Assembly (NCBI GenBank): GCA_040143965.1
Contig: JASJQH010000068.1
Coordinates: forward strand, 1 to 34,111
Reading direction: 5' to 3'
Length of the DNA stretch: 34,111 nucleotides
Source of the DNA: Basidiobolus ranarum
Taxonomy: Eukaryota
Position 1 is the first letter of the stretch, and the number at the start of each line of letters is the position of its first letter. The translations under genes were made by a program, and so were the position numbers. The notes under the pieces are model-generated. The model did no database searches. It saw only the letters and a program-made list of their open reading frames with translations, and was not told the DNA's origin. This document shows, one piece after another, positions 1 to 33,196 of this stretch.

Positions 1-107
1 TACAAGCAACTGATTGGCCTTAGACTTTGTGTTCAGATGCAGTCACCATACTCCATATTTTCCTCTTTGGGAATTACTGCTTGTACCACAAGTCACCAGA
101 CTTTCAA

Positions 108-233
108 CATTAGTTTGTTTACATCTTGACAAAACTATAAATATCAACTTTCTACTCAATAAATCAATAAGTGAAAACCACCAATTCCTCTAATTCTCCA
201 AACCACTTCCAACAGGCTCCCAAATACTATAAC
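108..233 (+). repeat. LTR 3' portion, copy 1 (opposite orientation to the adjacent integrase fragment)
   Basis: ttctactcaataaatcaa...aaaccacttccaacaggctcccaaatactataaca recurs at 1080-1205 (inverted), 1250-1335 and 1975-2045, and ends in ...AACA. Confidence 0.75.
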
Positions 234-1079
234 AGTATAATCATCAATAAGTGTGATTTAATATCTTTTTTTGCCTAAAGACAAATTTTGCATAGGTCCA
301 CCCAAATCTGAATGAATTAGATCAAACTTTTTAACCAATTTGATTAAACCAAAGCTCTTGAACAGTTGCCTGGCTTGTTTTCATATATACAACCCTCACA
401 AATTTCCATATTGGTTGGGGGTTAACTTGAATTTTAGAAATTAGGTGATTTTAATCATTTTGCTCAAATAATCAAATCCAATATGGCCAAATCAATTAAG
501 CCATAATTAAATAGTTTCCTGATTTGAATGACTTATATTTAGACAAAAACCTCTTGAATTATATGTAAGCTTGTATAAGTTTTGATCCTTTTCTCCAAAA
601 GCTAAATAATTCCCATTTTGAGCAGTGATGATGCATCCTGACTTATCAAAATTGAATTTTAACCCTTCTGAGGTGGCTTTGCATAAAGATATTAAATTCT
701 TAGCAATATCTGGAACATGTAGTATATCCTTAAAAGTATATACTTTCTCTTCAGAAGCTCCAGTTAAATTGACTTGAATTGTTCTCATTCCAATAGCTTC
801 CAATGTGCAGTCATCTCCCATGAAAAGCTTTCTAATTGGGATTTCTTTGTAATTGACAAACCAATGTTTTGCATTTTTGAAATGTTGGGAAGCTCCAGAA
901 TAAATATATCATGTCTGAGAATCCTTGTTGGCAGTCATAGATAGAGCAGATATGAACAAGTAATCTTCTGTTGCAACCACATTCACATATTCATTACATT
1001 TTTCTTCTTTTGCAATTCTTTTAAACTAATCTTTGCTTAAGTAGACATAACAGAGAGTGCAAGCTTGGGGCTCATAGCC
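234..1079 (-). mobile_element. Degenerate Ty1/copia LTR retrotransposon internal region (PBS, gag remnant, protease, GAG-pre-integrase, start of integrase)
   Basis: Minus-strand translation gives decayed copia motifs: YIYSGASQH (protease DSGAS.H), MGDDCTLEAIG...DILHVPDIAKNLISL, FGHIGFD (LGH), ICEGC, and LIHSDLGGPMQ...ITLIDDY (integrase). Stops and frameshifts are present. PBS-like GGCTATGAGCCC lies at 1068-1079, directly after an LTR end (...TTTAACA). Confidence 0.88.
1068..1079 (-). promoter_or_regulatory. Copia-type primer binding site (GGTTATGAGCCC-like)
   Basis: Minus strand reads ...ctttaaca|ggctatgagccc, one mismatch to the copia/Ty5-type tRNA-iMet-fragment PBS, immediately adjacent to the LTR terminus. 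Confidence 0.7.
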
Positions 1080-1205
1080 TGTTAAAGTATTTGGGATCCT
1101 GTTGGAAGTGGTTTAGAGAATTAGAGGAATTGGTGGTTTTTTCACTCATTGATTTATTGAGTAGGAAGTTGACATTTATAGTTTTGTCAAGATGCAAACA
1201 AACAA
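1080..1205 (-). repeat. LTR 3' portion, copy 2 (5' LTR of the minus-strand copia element)
   Basis: Reverse complement of the 108-233 repeat, followed on the minus strand by the PBS. Confidence 0.75.
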
Positions 1206-1249
1206 ATATGTAGAATGTGTTAACATATTCTACATGTTAATTTGTTAAC

Positions 1250-1335
1250 CTTCTACTCAATAAATCAACAAGTGAAAACCACCAATTTCTCTAACTCTCC
1301 TAACCACTACCAACAGGCTTCCAAATACTTCAACA
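1250..1335 (+). repeat. LTR 3' portion, copy 3
   Basis: Direct imperfect copy of 151-233, ending ...ttcaaca. Confidence 0.7.
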
Positions 1336-1697
1336 AAAGAGACAACATACTATAGTACTTTCAGTACCAGATGTAGAGTATATGGCTGCTTGTGAAGTGA
1401 CAAAAGAAGCAAAATGGCTAAGAGAACTCATGACAGATTTGAACTATTCTTGAAATTCACCAACTAAAATATTTCAAGATAATGAAAGTTGTAGCAAGTT
1501 AGCCAGAAATGTCATAATACACACTAGAAGCAAGCTTATAGATATTAGACATCATGTTATCAGTTTATTGACTTAACTTATTTCTCTACAGAAAACATGA
1601 ATGTTAATATGTCAACCAAACCACTAGCTAGACAGATATTTTAGAAATTTAGAACTTGTTTCAGATATGTTTGCATGACTATTTGGCTGAAGGAAAG
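1336..1697 (+). mobile_element. Degenerate Ty1/copia RNase H domain plus polypurine tract
   Basis: Translates to KRQHTIVLSVPDVEYMAACEVTKEAKWLRELMTDL...PTKIFQDNES...HTRSKLIDIRHH...TKPL, the copia RNase H signature (EAEY, KE..WL, DN, KHIDIR). Contains stops. PPT-like gaaggaaag at 1689-1697. Confidence 0.88.
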
Positions 1698-2045
1698 TCT
1701 TGGAATTAGCATTGTCTAAGCACTTATATAGTCATATAGAGCTTAGTATTTAGGAGTTCTATATTGCACTAAGATATCACCCTTGATTATCAATAGAAAT
1801 TACTCAAAAAATATTTGCCAACTTAGAAGTTCTCAGATATATAAGTTTTTGCAAGCTGGTGCAAAAAGCCCTAAACTTTGCATGCATGATGCCAGGACCC
1901 TCCTTAACAAACTCTTCATGTTGGCTTGCTTACATCTTGGCAAAACAATAAATGTTAACTTTAAACTCAGTTAGTAAATAAGTGCAAACCACCAATTTCT
2001 CTAATTCTTCAAACCACTTCCAACAGGTCCCAAAATACTGTAACA
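1698..2045 (+). mobile_element. Putative 3' LTR of the plus-strand copia remnant (~350 bp)
   Basis: Starts right after the PPT (tcttggaa, decayed TGTTGG) and ends with the shared LTR 3' repeat ...ccaaaatactgtaaca. Confidence 0.6.
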
Positions 2046-2065
2046 CCAAGGTGAGGTGAATATCC

Positions 2066-2176
2066 GAAGTAAATTTCATTTGAAAATAAAGGGTGATATC
2101 TTAGTGAAATATTGGATAATAAAATATTAAGCTATATATGACTATATAGGTGTTTAGGCAATGCTATTTTCAACCA
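2066..2176 (-). repeat. Inverted partial copy of the LTR 5' portion
   Basis: Reverse complement reads tagcattgcctaaacacctatatagtcatatatagcttaatatt...cactaagatatcaccctt, matching about 1707-1785. Confidence 0.7.
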
Positions 2177-3560
2177 TATTTACTTGGTGCTAGTCAGGAA
2201 GGTTGAGATGGGACATGGAATAACCATGATTAACGCCATAATGTTAAAATTTTGGCTCTTGGATACTGTGAAATTTAGTAATATAGCTGATAATGCACGA
2301 TCTTAGTGGTAAAAACATGTTGCACTCAAAACTGATTCACTCACTGCCGTGAATATAAGTGTGTATAATATCACCAAGATTCATGGTATCACCTTCATAA
2401 CATAAAGAACTATTATTTTCTTCAGCAGCATGACACATAGCATGTTAAAACATGAAGTAAATGGTTAGATATTATCATTTGAAAAAACGCATGCCAAAAA
2501 ATGAATCAGTTTTGAGCAATAGTGTATAAATATTTTGAGTTTGAGAGCTGTTGATTATTTGATGAGAAAAAAAGAGTTTACACTTTTTGGTAGAATTATA
2601 GAAAATAAACAATGGAGTTATGTTCAGAATATCTGTTGAACTAACTTCAGTCATCCCAGAGTCAATTTGAATGACTTCGAAATTTCACGTTCCAAGTTGT
2701 TAATTCGTGCTAAATATATGTTTGAACTAGGTGATATTTGAGTAAATAATGATAAATAACTTCGATGTGATACAAGGAACAGTCTGGGCCACAGATATAG
2801 GAATGACAAATATGATGTAGGTAATAATCTTCAACAGGACCTCTTTCTCCCTCTTCAGACTTTCCATACGAACCTCAACTATCTGGTTCGTCATTTACCA
2901 GACTCCATAAACTTAATGTTTTGCTAAAATACACCAATTTGGACAACCTGGTCAATGATATCGACAAGCTTCTTTGAAAAGCAAGAATCCATCAATACTC
3001 ACTTCAATAATATAGAAAATACCTCTGACGAACAGCGATATTTAAGCCAAGTTATAGTTGCTTGTTAGAACTCCAAATAGCCCAAATATTCTTCCAGGAT
3101 TCAGTTGTATATATTTTCACATCCTGCTGTTCATGAATTTCATACCCGTTGTGTTGGGATTCGACTATTGAAGTCATTCCTCTAGAGAAACCGCTAATTA
3201 TATGGCCACGCTTTGCGAAGCAGAAGATCAATACAAGATTTCTTGTGGATGATCTCAATGCTACAGTGATAATGGATGGCATTATGTCAACATAGTGAAT
3301 TCACATACTTCAACCTTATTATCATCGTCTATATATATGTATGCTTCTGTATATGAGATGAGATTGCATCTATACACATAGGCGTTTGTTTGGTAGGAAG
3401 TGGATATTGTGCATGCGTCTTTGGCCAACATTACTATTCCTAGCATCATCTAATATATGAAGCATGAACAATCATAGTAATCTTAGAGCCCTAACTCGGT
3501 TTGTGATCCATAATGTTTCTTAGAAGATCGGTCTGGTTCATTGGTAATACTAATAGAAAA

Positions 3561-3854: not shown

Positions 3855-4151
3855 ATGAGACTACACTATATTGCCTTCGCGCTACTTGCTCTTCCTTTCG
3901 TAGCCCACGCAGCTGAGCCCAAAGAAGCTGACTTAGACGCTGGAGGTCTTGGCTTGACTATTGTCAAAACCTTGTTGAAAGTAGGACTTCGTAAAGTCAA
4001 CACTAAATCCGCTTGCCAAGCATGCAAAGGTCTATGCAACAGAATCTTTTCCGGCTCCACTAAAGATATCTGCAAGTATGAAGTTTGTGTTGGAACCTTA
4101 GGTGGTGTTGAAACTACCGAGAAGAAGCCATCTTGCACTTTAATTAAATAA
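3855..4151 (+). CDS. Small secreted cysteine-rich cationic protein (98 aa), candidate antimicrobial/effector precursor
   Basis: Good start context (caaaATG), signal peptide MRLHYIAFALLALPFVAHA, short acidic spacer, amphipathic Lys-rich helix, six Cys, AATAAA about 47 nt after the stop; intronless. Confidence 0.8.
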   Translation: MRLHYIAFALLALPFVAHAAEPKEADLDAGGLGLTIVKTLLKVGLRKVNTKSACQACKGLCNRIFSGSTKDICKYEVCVGTLGGVETTEKKPSCTLIK

Positions 4152-4836
4152 TTTGATGAGTGCAAAAGTCAAATATACTGTGGAAATGAGTTTCTTCAAT
4201 AAATCAAGTAGTCAATTATAAGTTGATTTTTCATTATCTCTGATTGTCATAGTCATCATAGACATGGAATAAATCGGGTTTTGATGTATTTAACATCAAT
4301 AAACAGGGGTTGGTCCAAGTATAAGGTAAATCAAGACGGTAGGAGTGCATATAATGGTATCTATATTGAGTATAGAACTAACGTTACGTTACACAGTTGA
4401 TCTTTTTGTAACAAGACTTATCGATGAAAGTTTCTTATCATCACAAATGATCTTGTTACAAATTGAAATTTTAACCAAATACTTATTTTTATCGACTTGA
4501 TGTAAGTAAACGACTATACTATACTACATTCTGTGCCTACTAGTTGTACAACTGCAGAATACTTATCCTTTTATTGTGTATCCGTGCGGGTGTTATTAAG
4601 TGCCTATTTCTATACGTAGCAAATTTCCAGAGGTTGAACGAGATCGATGTAGATGATTATTCCACCGCTGTACTCAGTTAATTCTACACATATAATACTG
4701 ATTATGTAAGTCTCATTGTAAGTAGTATTCAATCTAGTTCGCCTAAGGACTTTAGAACCGAGGATTTAAGAGTGTACAAATGTGATTCCATGAACATTCA
4801 AAGGGTACACATAAACTCACCTTCCCTAATCAATTC

Positions 4837-5338
4837 ATAAAGAGCTGGACTATCCTTATCTGCTTAACCTTTCTACTCCTCCAGGTGATTCTGGGCATTA
4901 CTGGTCCGGATGTCAACTATGTGCAGTGCACTGGTAGACCTCAAAAGGAAGTAAAACCCTCATCTATGAAAGTGATATCTGGTAATGGCGACCTTCAAAA
5001 ATGTTCGCCCTGGTTAATCAGCAGCGTCAACAATATGGCATGAAGCCACTCAAACTTAACAGACACTTGGTGCGGCTGCTCAAAAGCATACAAACTACCA
5101 AACTCATGTTAACCAATGACTCGTGATGAACCTTTAGGCACTTATATCTCTGAAAATGGATTTAATTGGAGAGTTATGGGGGGGGGTAAATGTTGGCAGC
5201 GGTTATGCTAGCATCGAGATGCAAGGTTAGATGAACTTTGCTGGACATCGACGCAACATTCTTGAACCTCAGCTTACCTCCTTTGGTTCTGGCTACGTTG
5301 CCAATGGGGACTACTGGGCACAACTATTCGGTGGCTAA
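4837..5338 (+). pseudogene. CAP/SCP/PR-1 superfamily (YkwD-like) secreted protein pseudogene
   Basis: Stitched translation: signal-like IKSWTILICLTFLLLQVILG; MFALVNQQRQQYGMKPLKLNRHLV; AAQKH; NVGSGY; MQG*MNFAGHRRNILEPQLTSFGSGY...YWAQLFGG*. Several frameshifts, TAG in place of the conserved Trp at 5228-5230, and ATA where an ATG is expected. Confidence 0.85.
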
Positions 5339-6400
5339 AATCCCCTCTCTGGGGCAGTCTGTTTGTCAATATGAATCAAGAATACAGGAAATGGTAAACT
5401 AGATATATTATTTTGTTAGGGCTCATCGGATGGCTTAGAGTAATCAATAAATAGAAAATTTCGATGGTCTTTTACAAACATATGGATCTATTGGGAAATA
5501 CGTTACTTTATCATAAATATGAAGGATATTTTGGCATGCTGTGAAGGCAGTGATTAGATGAGCTAGTTATCCAAGGAAATGATGAAACCTAAAAGGGCAA
5601 TGTCGATCCAAAAATGCGGTAGTTGATTTAACTAAAATAGATTTCATATAGTACTGAGAGAGCATCGCTTAGGATGAAGCTACAATCAAATACCTAACAA
5701 GGGTATATACCCATGTCAAGTGACCAGGAATATCTGTATTATCAAGATATCATCACGATTGTGAGTTTTCCAATAATTCCTTTTTCGTTAGTATCGCAAA
5801 ATAAGCCATGAAAATCCTCACATTTCCATAATATTCAAAATTTCAATGTTTTTATATCATTACGATCAACCTAGATATCGATTCTATGAATCATGAGTTC
5901 TAAACTAACTATTAAAGGAATAATGAGAAACACTTGTAAATCCTCTACTCTTAGGGCGGTCGTTAGTGAGAATGATTTCTTTCTAGTGTTTCCGTTTAAA
6001 TCCACTCCAACGAGCTAAATAGGAAGCAAGCTTATCATCACTAATACGGTGAATGACTAACCAAGTTCTTCAATTGGTAAAGTCAGTCAGAGAAAAAGAT
6101 TGTAGCATGGGTTCGATCGTTATTTTCATAGGTTGGGGATGTTGCCATGTCAGCCCTAAAGTAAGTACTGTCTTTTTGACTGGCCCATCCATCATCAACA
6201 CTAAAACTAGTTGAATGTGAGTTTTTTTGGTGATAAAAATGGTCAGATTATATAAACTTTAGACTTTCGAGAAAATAAATGAAGATGCAATAAGTACTAG
6301 ATATATCAAGTCAAGATGAATGCGTCTTTGGTCAAAGCATAAATGGTAAGATGTATTATGAAATCCAATAAAGACCACGTTGCCGAACTGCCCGAGGAAC

Positions 6401-6408
6401 ATATAAAA
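6401..6408 (+). promoter_or_regulatory. Candidate TATA box of the HAS-like gene
   Basis: ATATAAAA about 45 nt upstream of ATG 6452. Confidence 0.4.
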
Positions 6409-6451
6409 ACGTGGGGAGTTGTTGAAGAACACTCAAATTTATATCTTCCCA

Positions 6452-8452
6452 ATGTTGACAAAGGACTCCAAACCATACCCACCTCCACCCCCTCAAGGGT
6501 TTTGGTTCTACTGCTATGCATTGCTCAAGGTTATACTGGGCCCTTGCTTCGTTGCTGCAGTAATTGTTGGAATAGTATGCGACGTGAATATCGCCAGCTC
6601 ATCAACAGTCACTTTGGGAATTTATGGAGTAACTATCATTACCTTCTTCGTTGTTCAAGTCTGCTTTGCCACCATAAACCGTATTCGAATGAACCGGATT
6701 GGCAAAACCTCCTTAAATCAAGAGAATACCAAACAAGTTATCGCCGTTGTTGTCGGTTATCGTGAAGAAATCAATGCTTGGTCTGCTGCTCTTCAGAGTC
6801 TAAAACGATCCAGTTATGCAGGGTTAAAAAAGGTGATTGCAGTTTGTGATGGCAACGAAGCGGCTGATGAAGAGATGGCTCAAGAATTTATACGTGTATT
6901 TCCTGAAGGATGTATTGTATCCCTCCCTGAAAGTATTGTTACAGTTTATAAACGAATGTACGGCATTGCGCTTGAAGCTGGTCAAACTCCGAAGGAAGCC
7001 GAGGACTGGGCATGGAAGAACACCAGTGATGATGTTCAATATATCGCTAGTAAATATGATCTTGGGTCTAGTAAACACATCTGCTTTCTTCAACCACATG
7101 GACACAAGCGCATTGCCATGTTTACCGGATTTCTTATGGCCATTGAAGGTTTTCAATGTGATGGTTATTTATTCACCACGGACTCTGATACTTTAGTAGA
7201 CGAGGATGCCATCGGCCACCTGGTTAGATGTATCCAATCTGAGAAGAACATTGGTGCAGTCACAGGAGATGTTAGAATCTGGAATCGCAAAGACAGCTTC
7301 TTGGCCAGAATGTGCTCACTTCGCTATTGGTTTGCTTTTAATATTGAACGTGCATGTCAATCCTTCAACAAAGCTGTTCTATGTGTAAGTGGACCACTAG
7401 GGTTATATGATGTTCGCATTCTGCGAGTCATTCTCGGTGGATGGGCACTTCAGAAGTTCGCCAAAACCGAAACTACCTTTGGAGATGATCGTCACCTTAC
7501 CAATCAAGTACTCAATTGTAACCTCAAGGTTCTTTACACCCATAAGGCCTATTGTTATTCCGACTCACCAGCCACATTAGTTCGATGGATTAAACAACAA
7601 ACCAGATGGGGTAAATCTTTCTACCGAGAGCTCATGTGGTTCCCTCGGGTTTACATCCTACATTCTCCATGGATATGTATTGAAATGTGTATTCAAGCTG
7701 TCTATCCATTCATCTTGGCCTACAATGCTCTTGCTTATCTCTATGGAAGTTACAGTTTTGCGCGATTGATTTCTTTCGCGATCACTGTGTGGCTAGTCGG
7801 TTTTATCAGGGCATTGTATGCATTCCTAATTACTTTAAAGGTGGTACGGAAAGACAAAGAGGAAAAAGAAGTGATGGACAGCAGAATCACCCAGGAAGGT
7901 GTACGCATTCCTCTGTTATGCACACCATGGGCACTTTATGCACGATTTGATTTCTTCCTCTTCTCAATCTATGGATTCTATTATTTCTTCTTCCTCATTC
8001 CGGCTAAGATTTATGCCATCCTTACTCCTCACCTTACTCAGTGGGGAACTTCAGCTCGCTCAGCCAGTGAAATGCGTAAAGGAGATTCGTTTATGGAACG
8101 CACCTCTCACATCATCGTTCATATCCCTTGGTTTATTGCTTTCGTCGTGGGTGTAGGACGTTTACTTTGGACCATCCTTGGTAGTATATACAGTTGGCTT
8201 ATTATCTTGATAGTGTTGATACCATTAGGAATACTTTATTGGGATATTATCAAAAGATACATATGTTGTTGCGTACCGGATATCGACATTGAGAAACAAT
8301 CGGACTCTGCACAATGCGAGAAAGCAATTACACGGTTGATTAATGTAGATAACTCATCTTGGCCTACAAACAGTATCATCTCCAAAGATTCCCACAGTGA
8401 AGGTGAACATAGTAGTGTTGCAAGTGGGCCAGTAATGAGTCAACCCATCTAG
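6452..8452 (+). CDS. Class I hyaluronan synthase-like membrane GT2 glycosyltransferase (intronless, ~666 aa)
   Basis: Two N-terminal TM helices; motifs GYREE, VCDG, CFLQPHGHKR, DSDT, AVTGDVRIWN, LRYWFAFNIERACQS, CVSGPLGLY, FGDDRHLTN, QQTRW and WGTS; several C-terminal TMs. First ATG is at 6452 (the ORF track starts at TTG 6419). Confidence 0.9.
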   Translation: MLTKDSKPYPPPPPQGFWFYCYALLKVILGPCFVAAVIVGIVCDVNIASSSTVTLGIYGVTIITFFVVQVCFATINRIRMNRIGKTSLNQENTKQVIAVVVGYREEINAWSAALQSLKRSSYAGLKKVIAVCDGNEAADEEMAQEFIRVFPEGCIVSLPESIVTVYKRMYGIALEAGQTPKEAEDWAWKNTSDDVQYIASKYDLGSSKHICFLQPHGHKRIAMFTGFLMAIEGFQCDGYLFTTDSDTLVDEDAIGHLVRCIQSEKNIGAVTGDVRIWNRKDSFLARMCSLRYWFAFNIERACQSFNKAVLCVSGPLGLYDVRILRVILGGWALQKFAKTETTFGDDRHLTNQVLNCNLKVLYTHKAYCYSDSPATLVRWIKQQTRWGKSFYRELMWFPRVYILHSPWICIEMCIQAVYPFILAYNALAYLYGSYSFARLISFAITVWLVGFIRALYAFLITLKVVRKDKEEKEVMDSRITQEGVRIPLLCTPWALYARFDFFLFSIYGFYYFFFLIPAKIYAILTPHLTQWGTSARSASEMRKGDSFMERTSHIIVHIPWFIAFVVGVGRLLWTILGSIYSWLIILIVLIPLGILYWDIIKRYICCCVPDIDIEKQSDSAQCEKAITRLINVDNSSWPTNSIISKDSHSEGEHSSVASGPVMSQPI

Positions 8453-8690
8453 GGAGAAAGATACTCTACGGCTAATCATGACCATCTTTCTTGTAGTATT
8501 TAATCAACATGCGAAATATATATATATTACCAATTTTCTGATCACAATAAACTCTAATGTTTCATGCAAACTTGCCATTTCTATCCACCTGCTAGACATT
8601 AGCTCACTCTTTCTTGTATTCCTTACAATATATAGATTCGTTAAGCGGTATTATTTGTTTGTTCAGCATAGCACGTAAGCACCCGTATTA

Positions 8691-8891
8691 GTATCAGTAT
8701 TCCTCACTATTGGAAGAATTAGAATTTCCGGCAACCGATACTAGAGTCTAATTGGTGAATTCAACATTTTACAATTGGATAATTGGAATCCAGATTTGGG
8801 TTGTATCCGTATTGTCGGGTAGAAGCTAAATTAGGCTCTATTATTGGTTGCCGGAAATTCTAGCTCTTCCAATATTGAGGAATACTGATAC
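8691..8891. mobile_element. MITE-like element (~200 bp) with ~63-bp imperfect terminal inverted repeats
   Basis: gtatcagtattcctcactattggaagaattagaatttccggcaaccgatactagagtctaatt (8691-8753) is near-complementary to 8829-8891. CAGT...ACTG ends suggest Tc1/pogo, but there is no clean TA target-site duplication. Confidence 0.75.
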
Positions 8892-9964
8892 CAAAAAGGG
8901 TGCCATAGCATTGGAATTCCAAACCCAATATAGAATTTCATTGGGAGTTGCATTTAACAATTCAATTTCAATTAACCTATTTGTAAAGATTGTGTTTGAA
9001 CCAATGGTTTGCTTGGAGTCTTCAACTAGACAGCTCTAGGATATGCTTCGAGTTCCAACTTTGTCAAGGTCTCCAGTCGAGAATATGCACATATCTTGGG
9101 GGACTCAGTTACAGTATCCTAGTATCATCGGTGGATTATAATTGTGGCTGGTTTGAAATTTATGAATAGTCAAATTACCATACTGAATTCCTATAATTAG
9201 TTATGCATGTTATGCTAGGCTTATCATCTGATCTTCATCTGGGATTCACCAATTGTACACTGGATATAATGAGCATTGAGTAAGTAACAAGTCACTACAT
9301 CTGTGACTAATAACCAGGCTATCACTATGACCTGAGTATATGTGAGTATTTTCCATACTTTAGTAGTACTAATATATATTACTAACTGCAACCCAAATGA
9401 GTCAAAGTTCCAGCTGAAATCTTGAGAAAATTGTTCAAATTCCCCTTAACTTTCTTAGTATACCAACACCACAACTATGTTGTCACTTTCCCGTATTTCT
9501 AACATAAAGATAAATCCATTTTTTTAATTCAATAAAGTAATCACTCCACATCATATATTGCTTTTATTCCCAAACACTTTCATTGAATCTATAATACTAA
9601 CAATAAAATCCCATTAAATGTAGTTGAGATAATTCGGAATAATGATTAGCTATTAAATGATCATCGCCCATGAATGTACTACGAATAATCCCAATTCAAG
9701 CGGAGTTAATATGCAATTGCGTCTCATATTCACAGGTATCATGTGTCTGGTGAATTACTGGACTATCAAGTGAGAATCCAGCTATTACCGATGACAAATC
9801 ACTAAGACCTTTGTACTAGTCATTGTATCCTTCCTAAATTAGGAAGAGGGGTTGAATTCCCAAGCCATATTCATATGCTACGATGTGAGGTATTTTAAGA
9901 GTGCCCTTTACATCCTACATTTTAATTATTGATCCACTTTTACGCACAATATTCTCTTTGTATA

Positions 9965-10858
9965 ATGTTGTCTTCTATTTCTTTAGTTCGTTATGGTCGA
10001 GTTGGAGTTGGTCAGTTGCCTAGTCGTTTAAGAACTACTCGGACTATGTCTAGTTTAGTCTTGAGAGAGACGGATTCCGAGGGTATTGTTACTCTTAAAC
10101 TCAAGGAGCCACCAGTGAATGCTTTAACTCGTCCTCTATTAACCGAAATTACCCAAAGTCTTCACGAAGTGGGGTTAAAGGCTGACCCAACTGAGTCTTC
10201 TTCAGTAAAAGGGCTGGTTTTAACTTCTAACTTAAACCATCAGTTTAGCGCAGGTCTGGACTTACGAGAACTTCACCGTCCAAACCCTAGTGATTTAACC
10301 GACTATTTACGACTATTTATAAAGACACTAAGAGTTCTTACTGCTTTACCACTACCCACTGCTGCAGTGTATAATGGTCATGCCTTGGCTGGAGGAGCGG
10401 TATTCGGTTTGGCTTGTGAGAGAAGATTCCTTTATAGAGGACAACCTTCTAAAGCGCCAAAAGGGACTTCTTATTGGGTTGGACTTAACGAGGTTGCTAT
10501 TGGTATCTCCATTCCACCCTTTCTTCGAGAGTTATCCCATTTCGTAGTGAATTATCCGGAAGAATTTGATGTTTACTTAGATCAAGGTACCATATTTCAA
10601 CCAGACGATGCACTGAAAGTTGGATTGGTCGAGGAAATTCATGAAGATCTTCCAAAAAGTTTAATGGAGGCAAAGAAATGGTGTCTAACTGAAAGTAATT
10701 CCACCCCTTGGAAAGAACGTACTAAAGCTAAACTTGAGGCACGTGCTCGTTTACTAAAAACTCTCGATGATATCGATACTCAAGTAAATCATCTACAAGG
10801 CTCCGTATTGAAAGAAGACTTTCAAAAAATGTTGGATAAAAGATTCAAGAAAGCTTAG
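9965..10858 (+). CDS. Mitochondrial enoyl-CoA delta-isomerase (ECI1-like, crotonase superfamily)
   Basis: Arg/Ser-rich, acid-free N-terminal targeting peptide; PPVNAL, FSAGLDLREL, NGHALAGG and VGLNE (catalytic Glu position of monofunctional ECI1). First ATG at 9965; intronless. Confidence 0.85.
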   Translation: MLSSISLVRYGRVGVGQLPSRLRTTRTMSSLVLRETDSEGIVTLKLKEPPVNALTRPLLTEITQSLHEVGLKADPTESSSVKGLVLTSNLNHQFSAGLDLRELHRPNPSDLTDYLRLFIKTLRVLTALPLPTAAVYNGHALAGGAVFGLACERRFLYRGQPSKAPKGTSYWVGLNEVAIGISIPPFLRELSHFVVNYPEEFDVYLDQGTIFQPDDALKVGLVEEIHEDLPKSLMEAKKWCLTESNSTPWKERTKAKLEARARLLKTLDDIDTQVNHLQGSVLKEDFQKMLDKRFKKA

Positions 10859-11071
10859 CTACTTGGCCTACATATAGTAATAAATATCAGCATCACGTTG
10901 AGACAGCTGGGAAATCATAGAACTGATGGCATACTGCTAGTATAGTCAACAACAGTGTTTAGTAAAGATCAAAATGGTTTGTAAATAGGTGTAGAGATAC
11001 AGAGAGGTGTCAAAGAATATCCATGGAGACAAAAAGAGATATACATGATACGCGATGGAAATTTCAATTCC

Positions 11072-12518
11072 TCAAAAAGATAGCTGTTTAAGATTCTGTG
11101 ACAATATAATGTCGTTAACGGAGGCCATGATATGTCTGATTTGCGTTGTATCAGTAGCATATGTGAGATGGGTGTAGATCACCTTTTCTTCGGATCGATT
11201 TAAGCTCTCAAATCGAGTCTTGAAATAGGAACTAGTTAGGTTGAAGTCATGACTTGGCCCTAAACAACAGATAAGTACAGAGTGAGGTTGAGTGTAGAGA
11301 CTGACACAAATTTACCTTTGTAGTCGGGGAAGTAAGTTGACACTGGACTGTGCTTAATTTTGTCTCGGAACAAGTCGATCTTGTTTAAGAATAAGATCAC
11401 TGAAGTGCTCCCAAACCAGTAAGAGTTACAAATGGAATCAAACAACATGAGTGCCTCATGCATGCGGTTCTGATTTGAGAATGTTAGTATTGGATAGATT
11501 GAGTGTAGTGTGGTATATGACTTACTGTGTCGCGATCCTCGGTTAATGTTTGATCATATCCGCTGATAGCTACCAAGAAGAGCAATGCAGTAACATCCTC
11601 AAAGCAGTGGATCCATTTCTTGCGCTCAGAACGCTGCCCACCCACATCCACCATTCTGTAAATAAACTGTTAGTGACCAACCAGGTAAACATTGAAGGAC
11701 AATGCTCCAAACATACCGATAAGTCAAAGGGTCCATATCAAACACCGTCTCAGTGATGCCGGTGGTTTTGATTCTTGTGTATAGAATATCTTGATCGGTA
11801 GGTTTGTAATTTAACTCAGACAATCGATCCAGCGATTCGAAAAAGCTATGATTCTAAAAGTCAGCCAAGTTCATGTTTGAGGCTCTATGGTTGTGAATAG
11901 AGCCACTTACTAAATAGCGTTGTCGTCAAGTTGGTAGAGATTAGATTTTTGGTAACAAATTTGGGTTCCTTCATCTTGCCAAATAGCTGTAACTGCTTGA
12001 AGATACTCTTTTGGATAAGGATCACCATGGTTTAAATCAGGGATATCATCGAATAATGAGACGTATTTCTAATATGTTCAAACCGGGTCAATGAATTGAA
12101 GAAAAATCTCCTTCTCCCCTCATAAAGAGTATGGAACTTACGATATTGTCTTGGTTGTTTAAAGAGATACCCAACACCTCCATTCCATAGAGGAGATCCC
12201 TTATAGACTGAGTTGTATTGCGAAAGATAACTATTCTATATGATTCACGCTCCAGGTCCGTAAAGCCACGATTGTGTATTAAACGCATTTGTTTCAAAAT
12301 GGTAGATTTACCTGACTCTCCAGCACCTAAGAAAAAAAAACCATAATGAGGGTAAAATAATTTACTCCATTCCAAACCATTTGTTGTCTCTACTTACCAA
12401 GTAATAATATCTTTACTTCATTTTTGGCTTTCTTTGCCTCAGCTTTAATTTGCTTCTCGATTAGTTTGCTCTTTTGCAACTCAGCAGAGGGTTGTGGAGC
12501 AACAAAGCAATTGCCCAT
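11072..12518 (-). CDS. Heterotrimeric G protein alpha subunit (fungal group II-like), 7 exons
   Basis: Exons 12518-12398, 12326-12142, 12068-11911, 11845-11717, 11655-11526, 11469-11316, 11259-11072, all GT-AG and in frame. Motifs [46 protein letters not shown]; ends LKQLSF. Confidence 0.95.
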
Positions 12519-16562: not shown

Positions 16563-17705
16563 GAGGGACAAAGGAACGAGGGTGTTTCAAATGGTTGTTG
16601 TGAATTGTATTCTAAAGCAAAGTACAAACCTTTGCTACTAAAAAAGCCGTTGAGAAGTTGAATTGTTAAAAATCATAACAGGATCATTTAAGTAAAAAGA
16701 ATATATACGTTTAGCTCATCCCAATGTGGACCTTCCATTTTGAAGAAATCAAGGAATATTATGAAGAACCACGAGGATCATCACTACTCCGCGCGTAATA
16801 GACTGAGTAATAATATAAATAGTCAATCAACTAGTATATAAAATCTAATTAGGAAACACCAATCCTATTTCTACAGTCTAGATTGGGGAGTCTATAAGAA
16901 TAGTCCCTAAACCGTAAGTAAATAATTGCTTTTTGGAAAACCAAACTTTAGTGCCGAATTCCTTCCATTCCTCACGAATGTTCTGAACATTCAGTTTGGT
17001 TTGCGGATGGTCGGTTCCTATTCGGCGATGATGATAACACCGGATACAAGTAAACCCTAACCTCACCAGGTAAAGGATAAGGGTTAGGGTTTGCGTCATG
17101 TAATTTATCACTCGAACTTAATTGGAATTTAGGGTTAGCGTTGGACATAATGAATGAACTTGTAGCTTTTTGCTTCTTTTTGCTGTTAAGTTGAACGCTA
17201 GATTTTATACCTCATTTCCTCATTTGGCTGATAATAATACCAGTGATGTTGGTTAGTCTAGATAGCCATTCACCACACTATTCGAAGATGAGATTCATGG
17301 ATAACAGTCTAAATAGTAAGCTGAGCATAAAGTATACCCGAAATCTGCGTCTTAAAGAACAAACATCCGCTATCATATCAAGAGTGGATTCATTCGAAGG
17401 GTATCCGAAACCATTCCAAGAAACCAACGTACCAACAGTGATTCGTAGCGGATTTCATTTAAAGAGTCATCTCTCTCGATGAACTTCTGGGTCGAATGAA
17501 CATATTCACTATGTTGACGTAAGCCAACTAATGTACGTATGGATGTAAGTCACTTGCCAATAGCACCAGTCACACAATACCAGATTGGCGGTAAAAACAG
17601 GATCTTCAAAGACACAAGCTGAAGCATAGAGCAACCTTGATCCGGCATTTATGAAGTTTCCTTTAAATATATATAAAGAAATCACCTGCGTAATATGGAA
17701 TTCTT

Positions 17706-17856
17706 TGCTACCTCGGAAGATCACTTTGGGCAATTTTGTTCTCTGCTACCTCGGAAGATCACTTTGGGCAATCTTTGTTCTCTGCTACCTCGGAAGATCA
17801 CTTTGGGCAATCTTTGTTCTCTGCTACCTCGGAAGATCACTTTGGGCAATCTTTGT
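17706..17856. repeat. Minisatellite, ~3.9 near-perfect copies of a 39-bp unit (tgctacctcggaagatcactttgggcaatctttgttctc)
   Basis: Units start at 17706, 17744, 17783 and 17822; the first is 38 bp; no spacers. Confidence 0.95.
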
Positions 17857-22029: not shown

Positions 22030-23338
22030 TTAAATAAGTCCACATTGTTCCAGATTCCTTTGAACTAAAATGTCGTTCACTGCTGACATTACAAATTTGA
22101 TTTGCTTAGTATCGGTGGCACATGTAAGATGCGAATAGATCTGCTTATTATGTGAATGGTCCAACGCCGTGAATCGTTTGGTTATATATTCACAAGCCTT
22201 ATTATAGTTAGAGCCACCTGTAGGAAATCTTTTTAGTAGGTAGTAAGATCTAGATTTCCTAACTGAAGTAAAACTACCTTCATAGTCAGGGAAACATCTG
22301 TTCATCGGTGAACAGGACAGTTTTTTCTTGAAAATATCGATTTTGTTGAGGAAAAGTATGACTGAAGTTCTTACGAACCATCGCGAGTTACAAATAGAGT
22401 CGAATAAAGTTAGAGCCTCTTGCATTCGATTCTATCAATGGACAGTAGGTTATTTTTTTGAAATAATCCACCAGCAGTGTTATGCATACACAAAACTTGG
22501 AATTACCACTGTTTGGTCTTCAGCTAGCATTTGATCATATTCACTGATAGCTACTAAAAATATGATGGTGGTAACATTTTCAAAGCAGTGAATCCATTTT
22601 TTTCGTTCCGAACGTTGACCACCCACATCCAGCATTCGATAGGTGAGATTAGAAACTTTAAAGACTGTCTCTGTGATGCCTGTCGTCTTAATTCTGGATC
22701 GGAGAATATCCTGATCAGTGGGGACATAATCTGGTTTTGAAATACGCTCGAGTGCGTCAAAATAACTGACAAAAGGCAATTAGGGGAAGGGGCTTTTTGA
22801 GTTTACTAGAGTTTACACTTACTATTTAGCAGAGTCATTCAACTGATACTCTGACGACCTTTCGAAACAAGCCTGAATTCCAGAATCGTTCCAGAGAGAT
22901 AAGATGATGTCGAAGCTCTCGGGTGAGACGGGTTGTTCGAGGTCAATCACCAGATTTGTGACGTATTCCACAGCATTGGCACTTGTTTCATTGCCTAGTG
23001 GAATTTCCATATCTACCATAGCTGATAGTATCACTTTCATTGAATGAATGATATTGGAGGAGATGACATTTCGGTAAGACTGCCTCTCAGCTGGACTGTA
23101 TCCATGGTTATGGATCAGTTTCATTTGACGAAATATAGTGCTTTTGCCAGACTCACCAGCGCCTAAACAGATCCAATGGTTAGTTTGAACTGAGAAAGGA
23201 CTGTTTTAACCTAGATTCACCTAGCAGGAGCATCTTTATCTCGCTCTGTTGGGAGTGCTTATCTTTTTTAATTTGATTTTCGATCTCGCCATTCCTACGC
23301 TTCTCTTCCAAATTCTCGCGACTAATACAGCAGCCCAT
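22030..23338 (-). CDS. Heterotrimeric G protein alpha subunit (fungal group I, G-alpha-i-like), 5 exons
   Basis: Exons 23338-23221, 23162-22823, 22765-22507, 22431-22278, 22217-22030. Motifs MGCCIS (myristoylation), [32 protein letters not shown], and C-terminal CGLI. Confidence 0.95.
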
Positions 23339-32438: not shown

Positions 32439-33009
32439 CCATTTCCTGTATATCTAAGAAGGGGTTAGGCCAGAGTTATATTAGGGGCTTACACTAATTT
32501 TCAGAAAAGAAAAGGTTCAATTCCCAATATATATGTATCGAAGAAATAAACCATGACTTGTTGAAAACCTCTATGATGTGTATCTATGTTATTCTCGGAA
32601 ATACCAGTTATTGAATTTTGAAACATGCACTAAGCAAGTAATACAACTGAGAAACATACAGAATGTATTAAGCACCAAGTTAACAAGAATTTAGTTGGAT
32701 GAACAACATGAATATATCACGATGATTTTCCCTTATATTGTTAGCAGCAAGTCTAATATCACAAGTATTGAAAACTGCAATCATATACCCAAGTAAGGGT
32801 TAGGACCGGGATCCACTTATTTTTCATGAAAATATTCTACTATAGGAAATTTAAATATTATCAAAATCAAAAATGAAACATTGATATTATGTTATTTCAG
32901 ATAAATTATGCCTTTCTAACTTTTATTATCCTATTTGTACTTCTATATGATACTATACTTATTTTGATTTGTAACCATATTACTTCGAAATATCTATAAT
33001 TGTTAACAA

Positions 33010-33196
33010 AACATGGTATTATCCTGAAATACAGCCATTAAACATAGTATTGTCCTGCAACACAGCTCGTAAACATGGTATTGTCTCATAATGCAGCTTG
33101 TAAGCATAGTATTGTCCTGTGACGCAGCTCGAAAACACGTAATTGTCTTGTAACGCTAGTCCGAAAACATGTTGTGGCCCTGTAACACAGCTCACA
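33010..33196. repeat. Degenerate minisatellite, ~6 copies of a ~31-bp unit (aacatrgtattgtcctgyaacacagctcgta)
   Basis: Six consecutive imperfect units are visible, followed by looser tcagagactca repeats up to about 33405. Confidence 0.85.

Follow-up and report, generated by a model that had tools for sequence, protein, structure and literature searches.

A hyaluronan-synthase-like gene of Basidiobolus ranarum and the acidic polymer it may make

Does a gut fungus of amphibians and reptiles carry a synthase for hyaluronan, and did the gene come from a virus or from other fungi? The question is raised by 34,111 nucleotides of Basidiobolus ranarum DNA (contig JASJQH010000068.1, assembly GCA_040143965.1), this whole stretch being called the window below. 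The initial annotation recognized in it an intact, intronless gene resembling class I hyaluronan synthases (HAS). It suggested that the product is hyaluronan or a related polymer containing glucuronic acid (GlcA), and that the gene was acquired horizontally, possibly via a giant virus. Our analysis confirms the gene and its HAS-like nature, finds a GlcA-containing product a reasonable expectation, and argues against horizontal acquisition. Sequence, motifs and predicted fold soundly assign the gene to a fungal class I (I-NR) HAS-like glycosyltransferase of family 2 (GT2). We lean, by a modest degree, towards a vertically inherited member of the I-NR family that would make an acidic GlcA-containing polymer.

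The gene is a single uninterrupted open reading frame (ORF) from ATG to stop, encoding 666 amino acids, in which residue n begins at nucleotide 6452+3(n-1). When its product was compared with PDB sequences by phmmer, all five distinct sequences matched at E <= 0.01 were HAS, including Xenopus HAS1 (XlHAS1; E = 1.1e-72, residues 17-457) and Chlorella virus HAS (CvHAS; E = 2.3e-64); no chitin-synthase chain was found at this threshold in that search. Pfam returned general GT2 families only (Glyco_tranf_2_3 and Glyco_trans_2_3), together with a partial Chitin_synth_2 match (PF03142; residues 231-322 against profile positions 194-287 of 527, 53.8 bits). The NodC equivalog model of NCBIfam (TIGR04242) did not reach its cut-off (140.1 bits against 550).

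Motifs were compared in a 100-row alignment of 97 HAS-like sequences and three rhizobial NodC. Reference genes comprised three rhizobial nodC and one Bacillus hasA from annotated plasmids, homologues from Streptococcus and other prokaryotes, and 43 viral loci. All three rhizobial genes displayed E-Y, GED and W-L-S. HAS-like rows had GDD and WGT with few exceptions, and Arg or Lys preceded the Tyr (Phe in two of them) in 94 of the 97, the remaining three having S, H and W. Chitin synthases are reported to carry QXFEY, EDR and QRRRW, and also WGTKG (review PMC12653383). Thus the proposed contrast between R-Y in HAS and E-Y in NodC and chitin synthases held, for NodC in the alignment and for chitin synthases in the reviewed motif. 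The WGT motif fared less well. W531-G-T-S-A-R536 does align to the XlHAS1 gating loop, but because chitin synthases are reported with WGTKG, WGT is not peculiar to HAS and, unlike R-Y together with GDD, is not diagnostic. Similarly, the QPH segment had been thought closer to chlorovirus than to vertebrate HAS. At the H216 column, His was indeed found in all 21 virus rows and Trp in all seven rows of the chordate clade; however, all fungal rows also had His (40 of 41 when chytrid-clade rows are counted), so that H216 marks non-chordates and not viruses.

These motifs bear on a rival explanation, namely that the enzyme is a chitin or chito-oligosaccharide synthase using UDP-N-acetylglucosamine (UDP-GlcNAc) only, and making beta-1,4-GlcNAc chains, whether short or long, that serve in the wall or in signalling. 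All the separating motifs of the Basidiobolus protein were in the HAS state: R-Y and not QXFEY, GDDR and neither GED nor EDR(XL), QQTRW and not QRRRW. Neither Chitin_synth_1 nor Chitin_synth_2 was matched over its full length.

Individual residues were then placed on the solved enzymes, with roles taken from PMC11750622 for XlHAS1 and PMC12987647 for CvHAS. PDB chain numbering is offset by 13 from that of the XlHAS1 paper, as checked on K218, C307, C337, R381 and K448. The Basidiobolus protein retains GIYG, Y103, E105, H216, K219, DSD, R291, R300, C311, GDD, R385/W386, R392, R453 and W531...R536 (Table 1). According to column counts in the alignment, G56-I-Y-G59 corresponds to 'GLYG', which is counted among HAS motifs (PMC11750622). 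With XlHAS1 and CvHAS the protein therefore has in common a motif set (GLYG-like, DxD, GDDR, QxxRW, WGTS.R) and the same basic residues at the channel entrance and in mid-channel (R291, R300 and R453). NodC, the nearest curated bacterial model, is likewise a GT2 and shares DxD, QxxRW and the conserved UDP-site Lys and Arg, but differs in its length (426 amino acids), in GED for GDD, in WLS at the gating loop and in Glu at the position of R291 (XlHAS1 R287). Since NodC has Arg at the positions of XlHAS1 R296 and K448, only one of the three GlcA-coordinating basic positions discriminates. R291, the arginine of the R-Y contrast pointed out by the initial annotation, corresponds to a residue that lies beside a GlcA of the nascent chain in the solved enzyme, and NodC has Glu there; no other single position in the sequence argues as well for an acidic product.

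The predicted fold pointed in the same direction. The AlphaFold2 model, built from an input alignment of 90 sequences, had a mean pLDDT of 89.3 and a pTM of 0.90. In a Foldseek search of the PDB, ranks 1 to 13 were all XlHAS1 or CvHAS (E 3.1e-34 to 4.2e-26, target TM 0.72-0.83), with 25-27% identity to these proven HAS in the structural alignments. A gap of 14 orders of magnitude followed before cellulose synthase (1.9e-12), and chitin synthases scored about 1e-11 with TM of 0.3-0.4. The predicted architecture is like that of XlHAS1 (PDB 8SMM/8SMN/8SMP) and PBCV-1 HAS (7SP6-7SPA, 8SNC-E, 9YQ2-5), with the same layout of membrane helices. In the model, two N-terminal and four C-terminal membrane helices, together with interface helices, would allow a monomer to form its own channel. 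The Basidiobolus protein differs from both enzymes by a 34-residue insertion, by Thr where the priming loop has Cys, by a long and variable stretch of the cytosolic part (residues about 168-203), and by a disordered C-terminal tail of 60 residues after the last helices, modelled with low confidence. Altogether, sequence, motifs, tree (see below) and predicted fold all place the protein closer to HAS of proven activity than to NodC or chitin synthases, as had been proposed.

The nature of the product was approached through the neighbourhood of fungal relatives. A metagenome scan gave 453 pattern matches, of which 364 were relatives and 80 were kept; three distinct long fungal loci were obtained (L128, L129, which equals L130, and L132). 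In all three, which are Leotiomycete-like and have at least 5 kb upstream, a divergently oriented UDP-glucose 6-dehydrogenase (UGDH) adjoins the HAS-like ORF (Table 1); a further five fungal-type loci did not extend far enough for this pairing to be assessed. The locus dehydrogenase best matched UGDH of C. elegans (6e-90) and human (3e-87) in the PDB, and the UDP-GlcNAc-dehydrogenase model TviB gave only 24-29 bits on these proteins. The HAS-like proteins of L129 and L132 are 97% and 85% identical to a Cadophora malorum protein. That of L128 best matches metagenome proteins, and L128 is tied to the group by its 86% identical dehydrogenase. In tblastn with the locus dehydrogenase, 16 of 208 sources were matched, including Streptococcus hasB beside hasA. 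Our literature search found no published description of a UGDH and HAS-like gene pair in fungi.

A similar arrangement was seen on another of the sources matched by tblastn, a 9.3-kb metagenome contig of 20% GC (L148), where a UGDH-like ORF (4426-5250, +) lies directly upstream of a HAS-like ORF (5509-7230, +; 574 codons stop to stop). Its UGDH-like protein is 48% identical to the fungal locus dehydrogenase. The source is probably a giant virus or a protist.

A GlcA-containing polymer is favoured because of the UGDH pairing in three loci, the predicted supply of UDP-GlcA and the presence of GlcA in B. meristosporus walls. Indeed, Entomophthoromycotina, including Basidiobolus, are predicted to make UDP-GlcA (PMC8092308). 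GlcA was found with fucose in walls of B. meristosporus, alone of four Zoopagomycota species tested; every Mucoromycota species tested contained GlcA, as did three Hypocreales (PMC11170279). The enzyme would use UDP-GlcNAc and UDP-GlcA as donors and extend the chain at its non-reducing end. The putative product would be an acidic glucuronic-acid polymer, either hyaluronan itself or a close analogue, placed in the Basidiobolus wall or extracellular matrix. That it is hyaluronan proper seems to us a possibility to be held only tentatively.

Several observations weigh against an acidic product made by a genuine HAS. The two CvHAS residues framing the GlcA carboxylate, K177 and the QxxRW Arg, occur in NodC as well, so that no known residue set proves use of UDP-GlcA. 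The Basidiobolus protein has T341 in place of the priming-loop Cys (XlHAS1 C337) and F65 in place of XlHAS1 H72; in XlHAS1, C337A/S is near wild type and H72F is about 10% active (PMC11750622), and Phe occupies the H72 column in 3 of 21 virus rows. All three loci with a linked UGDH belong to a single fungal group, with dehydrogenases 86-92% identical to one another, and are therefore not independent; their HAS-like proteins are only 36% identical to that of Basidiobolus. Unlike these loci, the Basidiobolus gene has no adjoining UGDH: tblastn (E <= 1e-5) found no UDP-sugar dehydrogenase within the window, which covers 6.4 kb upstream and 25.6 kb downstream. The fucose that accompanies GlcA in B. 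meristosporus recalls the mucoran-type polymers of Mucoromycota (PMC11170279), and hence this GlcA need not be hyaluronan. Finally, our search of the literature, supplements excluded, found no activity, product or expression data for any fungal family member.

Synthesis of GlcNAc-only chains, introduced above, draws on further points. In the rooted tree the family and NodC are sisters. Hydrolysis of UDP-GlcNAc provides CvHAS with its own primer, and streptococcal HAS is reported to make chitin-oligomer caps, chitin synthesis by vertebrate HAS being disputed (PMC10939387, PMC12987647). Walls of B. meristosporus are chiefly chitin (PMC11170279). In source records, one Fusarium oxysporum family member is named 'chitin synthase' and that of the aphelid Paraphelidium 'putative chitin synthase'. 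On the other hand, besides the HAS-state motifs, chitin-synthase structures were distant in Foldseek and went unmatched in phmmer, and the UGDH pairing of the Leotiomycete-like orthologues would be pointless for an enzyme using GlcNAc only. We therefore judge a chitin-type product rather unlikely.

The GlcA data fit another rival as well, in which the enzyme makes a different acidic polymer, with a polyglucuronic-acid or mucoran-type backbone or a chain containing another uronic or amino sugar, in place of the alternating GlcNAc and GlcA of hyaluronan. GlcA and fucose occurred together in all six Mucoromycota species as well as in B. meristosporus, which the authors link to mucorans (PMC11170279), and family members are present in Mucoromycota and Mortierellomycota. 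Moreover, CvHAS can add GlcA to cellobiose or chitobiose, indicating a relaxed acceptor site (PMC12987647), and identity to proven HAS in the structural alignments is low (25-27%). However, the switch-loop C311 and the remaining active-site residues are conserved as in HAS, and no HAS-family enzyme is known to make a homopolyuronide. This alternative is thus given a low probability too, and a GlcA-containing polymer of the I-NR type remains the preferred reading.

The origin of the gene was examined from its relatives. A hypothetical protein of B. meristosporus is 77% identical over 99% coverage and one of B. ranarum 75% identical over 96%. The database search scored 7999 candidates, of which 508 proteins had E <= 0.001. 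Among the best 120 of these 508, the fungal matches following Basidiobolus are 34-44% identical (all but one 34-42%) and often auto-named 'hyaluronan synthase 2'. An exhaustive profile-free search gave 2610 representatives at E <= 0.001, of which 256 reached E <= 1e-30. Named representatives come from chytrids (Geranomyces, Terramyces/Boothiomyces, Physocladia), Gonapodya, Mortierellomycota and the aphelid Paraphelidium, and also include amphioxus HAS2 and a lamprey HAS3-like protein; fungal relatives are found in Mucoromycota and Dikarya as well. Judged from these sequences, the family spans nearly all fungal phyla, and the gene is its Basidiobolus orthologue.

Three trees were built: a FastTree overview, a quick IQ-TREE of 100 rows rooted on NodC, and a careful 42-row tree omitting 58 redundant members of the same groups. 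In all three, the three Basidiobolus proteins and Dikarya form one clade (100/100). Within this clade Basidiobolus is sister to Dikarya, again in all three trees (91/95 in the careful 42-row one). Mucoromycota are the next group (91 in the 42-row quick tree, 84/91 in the careful one); their position is unresolved in the 100-row tree, and in the FastTree overview they lie within a 37-row clade containing fungi. Chordate HAS form a separate clade (100/100), weakly near fungi in the 100-row tree (84) and unresolved in the 42-row tree. All three trees place chlorovirus HAS within a giant-virus clade, away from Basidiobolus; a 568-residue ORF of a viral locus on a 330,611-bp contig matches CvHAS chains at 1011 bits. 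NodC is split from the HAS-like family at 100/100.

Horizontal acquisition, and in particular recent transfer into Basidiobolus from a giant virus or bacteria, was weighed against this topology. The gene is a single ORF amid multi-exon neighbours, with repeats and part of a retroelement 4-6 kb upstream of it, relatives are encoded on 43 giant-virus and other viral contigs, and H216 is common to the gene and chlorovirus HAS. H216 is nevertheless common to all fungal groups, and three Leotiomycete-like orthologues are also single ORFs (733, 707 and 758 codons stop to stop), so that the lack of introns is no sign of recent arrival. The congeneric orthologues and the clade with Dikarya speak against transfer. 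In an approximately unbiased (AU) test on the 42-row set, run after the tree was seen on the hypothesis set beforehand by the initial annotation, forcing Basidiobolus together with chlorovirus HAS cost 142.9 log-likelihood units (p-AU 1.3e-7). The composition of the gene is also that of its surroundings: GC (0.424) and GC3 (0.393) are within the ranges of neighbour genes, and its relative synonymous codon usage correlates at 0.69 with pooled neighbours, which correlate at 0.17-0.76 among themselves. A recent transfer is thus most improbable, and the proposed giant-virus route is rejected. As far as these sequence comparisons go, they show vertical descent of the gene within fungi.

Within Dikarya, Pezizomycotina members (Fusarium, Ilyonectria, Pseudocercospora and others) fall inside Basidiomycota, beside Sympodiomycopsis and Tilletia of the Ustilaginomycotina (support 97-100), and Saitoella is at the base in both the 100-row and 42-row trees. 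The Pezizomycotina placement suggests transfer or hidden paralogy within Dikarya. Two Leotiomycete paralogues, P0252 of Coleophoma and P0260 of Cadophora sp., have a very long branch, NEDR in place of GDDR and no RYW...ER..QS motif; judging from these sequences, this side branch of the family may have neofunctionalised. In B. ranarum, a 151-residue protein (P0235, K7432_001294) is 60% identical to residues 520-654 only, which may point to another HAS-like copy in the genus, incomplete or wrongly annotated.

The novelty first attached to a HAS-like gene in a fungus was overrated. The gene is a further member of an already annotated fungal family, whose homologues are auto-named 'hyaluronan synthase 2/3' in public records (Mucor, Rhizopus, Mortierella, Mycena, Tilletia, Fusarium oxysporum, Cadophora and chytrids) and carry the same motifs. 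Such homologues have been discussed as the nearest relatives of chordate HAS1-3: Crisp et al. named fungal homologues as the source of human HAS1-3 (PMC4358723), and Salzberg re-read the case as rate variation, with Lichtheimia ramosa as best non-metazoan match at 333 bits (PMC5422933). In the excerpt of a 2023 HAS review, Cryptococcus CPS1 is the sole fungal candidate named (PMC10939387).

Two other groups of fungal genes were compared from their published descriptions. The CV/ESV 'chitin synthase-like' genes (FgCHS8, Trichoderma chs8) are likewise small fungal GT2s, said to resemble HAS, patchy in Ascomycota and discussed as virus-related; they are paired with a UDP-GlcNAc 6-dehydrogenase, and often with a polysaccharide deacetylase (PMC5122149, PMC4059230, PMC7053769). 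They differ in their published placement inside chitin synthases, with HAS as outgroup, and in their dehydrogenase, classed as UNGD, whereas that of L128-L132 is UGDH-like. None of their taxa (Fusarium graminearum, Aspergillus flavus/oryzae, Exophiala, Ustilago, Trichoderma) was among the 120 matches listed. By description and taxon distribution, not by alignment, they look like a different family. Within the window, tblastn detected no dehydrogenase, and Pfam no deacetylase among the submitted ORFs of at least 100 amino acids; three giant-virus records in which a chlorovirus chitin synthase was sought yielded the HAS-like gene only. CPS1, ZtGT2 and Neurospora CPS-1 are fungal GT2 polysaccharide synthases too, and the literature names Cryptococcus CPS1 as a candidate for making hyaluronic acid (PMC10939387, PMC5653360). 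Published descriptions liken CPS1 to pneumococcal Cps3S (about 26%) and, to a lesser degree, to streptococcal HAS. ZtGT2 orthologues are reported absent from Taphrinomycotina, whereas the family of the Basidiobolus gene includes Saitoella. No Cryptococcus, Zymoseptoria or Neurospora protein was among the 120 matches listed. On published descriptions and taxon distribution, the CPS1/ZtGT2 family thus appears separate.

A broader proposal, that fungi from chytrids to mushrooms, Basidiobolus included, carry authentic HAS and secrete hyaluronan or a near-identical glycosaminoglycan, is less likely than not. If true, hyaluronan would be an old holomycotan or opisthokont-associated polymer and not an invention of chordates, a few bacteria and chloroviruses; in a gut fungus of amphibians and reptiles that also infects humans, it could serve as host-like camouflage or as a spore adhesive. 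The weak grouping of chordate HAS with fungi is compatible both with a shared opisthokont origin and with the fungus-to-chordate transfer of Crisp et al. The hyaluronan field treats class I-NR synthases as vertebrate and chlorovirus enzymes, and here proteins with all known HAS hallmarks occur in nearly all fungal phyla. A GlcA polymer would change the known distribution of glycosaminoglycans, offer a possible enzyme for making the uronic-acid polymers found in walls of the zygomycete type and inform the dispute on a fungal origin of chordate HAS1-3 (PMC4358723 versus PMC5422933). A GlcNAc-only product would instead mean that the R-Y/GDD/WGTS signature has no predictive value for uronic-acid use, affecting the annotation of thousands of viral, archaeal and bacterial homologues. 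The gene is an intron-free, full-length representative of the family and can be expressed directly.

Table 1. Features of the window, residue equivalents of the encoded protein, and UGDH-linked loci of fungal relatives.
Feature	Position	Strand	Basis or role
Class I hyaluronan-synthase-like GT2, complete single-exon gene	6452..8452 (stop codon included)	+	ORF, translation, phmmer, orthologues
Two N-terminal transmembrane helices, residues 17-43 and 57-84	6500..6703	+	AlphaFold2 model helices
Cytosolic GT-A (GT2) catalytic domain, residues about 96-375	6737..7576	+	Pfam, model secondary structure, Foldseek alignment
QPHGHKR with H216 and K219	7091..7111	+	Alignment to CvHAS H174 and K177
D244-S-D246, DxD metal/UDP-binding motif	7181..7189	+	Both D invariant in 100/100 alignment rows
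RYWFAFNIERACQS, interface helix 1, with R291 and R300	7322..7363	+	Alignment to XlHAS1
G344-D-D346 (GDDR, R347), catalytic-base motif	7481..7489	+	Alignment
Q382-Q-T-R-W386, QxxRW motif of processive GT2 synthases	7595..7609	+	Alignment
Basidiobolus-specific 34-residue insertion, residues 464-497	7841..7942	+	3/90 aligned rows, all Basidiobolus
W531-G-T-S-A-R536, gating loop	8042..8059	+	Alignment to XlHAS1 WGTSGR; Trp, Gly and Arg of the HAS loop essential (PMC11750622)
Last two transmembrane helices, residues 557-576 and 579-604, closing the predicted channel	8120..8263	+	AlphaFold2 model
R291 = XlHAS1 R287			Adjoins GlcA-2 of nascent chain
R300 = XlHAS1 R296			Adjoins GlcA-2 of nascent chain
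R453 = XlHAS1 K448			Beside GlcA-4
C311 = XlHAS1 C307			Switch loop, beside GlcNAc acceptor
R536 = XlHAS1 R496			Gating loop, essential Arg (mutagenesis, PMC11750622)
H216, K219 = CvHAS H174, K177			Uracil groove; Lys helps frame GlcA carboxylate in proofreading pose (PMC12987647)
R392 = CvHAS R348			Interacts with Gly300 of GDD motif/priming loop
Copia-type Pol beta-barrel domain ORF	510-908	-	E 8e-19; decayed retroelement about 5.5 kb upstream
Direct and inverted repeat cluster, 60-138 nt, around the Copia-type fragment	82-2173		Repeat listing
Inverted repeat, 75-nt arms, 88% complementary, 75 nt apart	8679-8903		230 nt past stop codon
L128, UGDH-like, upstream	4035-5787	-
L128, HAS-like	9776-11974	+
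L129, UGDH-like, upstream	6297-8294	-
L129, HAS-like	9857-11977	+
L132, UGDH-like, upstream	633-2614	-	GH16 gene between this and the HAS-like gene
L132, HAS-like	5850-8123	+

The gene itself is intact as first described, and the positions then given for DSD, GDD, QQTRW, WGTS and R291 of RYWFAFNIERACQS were all exact. Its intronless state is consistent with the single ORF and with collinearity to the B. ranarum protein (2 gaps in 640 columns). The insertion at residues 464-497, confined to the three Basidiobolus proteins among the 90 aligned rows, sits between the fourth membrane helix and interface helix 3 and is modelled, at lower confidence, as short strands (pLDDT blocks 53-82). A retained intron was considered for this segment, which contains a 54-nt GT...AG stretch at 7841-7894. 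It was judged coding, however, because it is kept in frame in both database Basidiobolus proteins, with a single 1-residue gap against B. ranarum.

The description of the flanks as rich in transposable elements held in part. To the left, the Copia-type Pol fragment lies among repeats, and on the 3' side of the gene comes an inverted repeat that resembles a miniature transposable element or a hairpin. The right-hand 25 kb, however, consist of ordinary multi-exon genes, with an enoyl-CoA hydratase, two G-alpha genes, a CitMHS transporter, a bestrophin, a Myb protein, RPL5 and an arrestin-like gene. The two G-protein alpha-subunit genes, each of several exons, lie within 11 kb of each other (12091-12393 and 22033-23205, both on the minus strand). 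Finally, two tandem arrays were observed: one at 17697-17856, between CitMHS and bestrophin, in which a 38/39-nt spaced repeat (family length 44 nt) occurs four times, three of the copies being identical, and one at 33009-33163, in which a 31-nt spaced repeat (family length 62 nt) likewise occurs four times.

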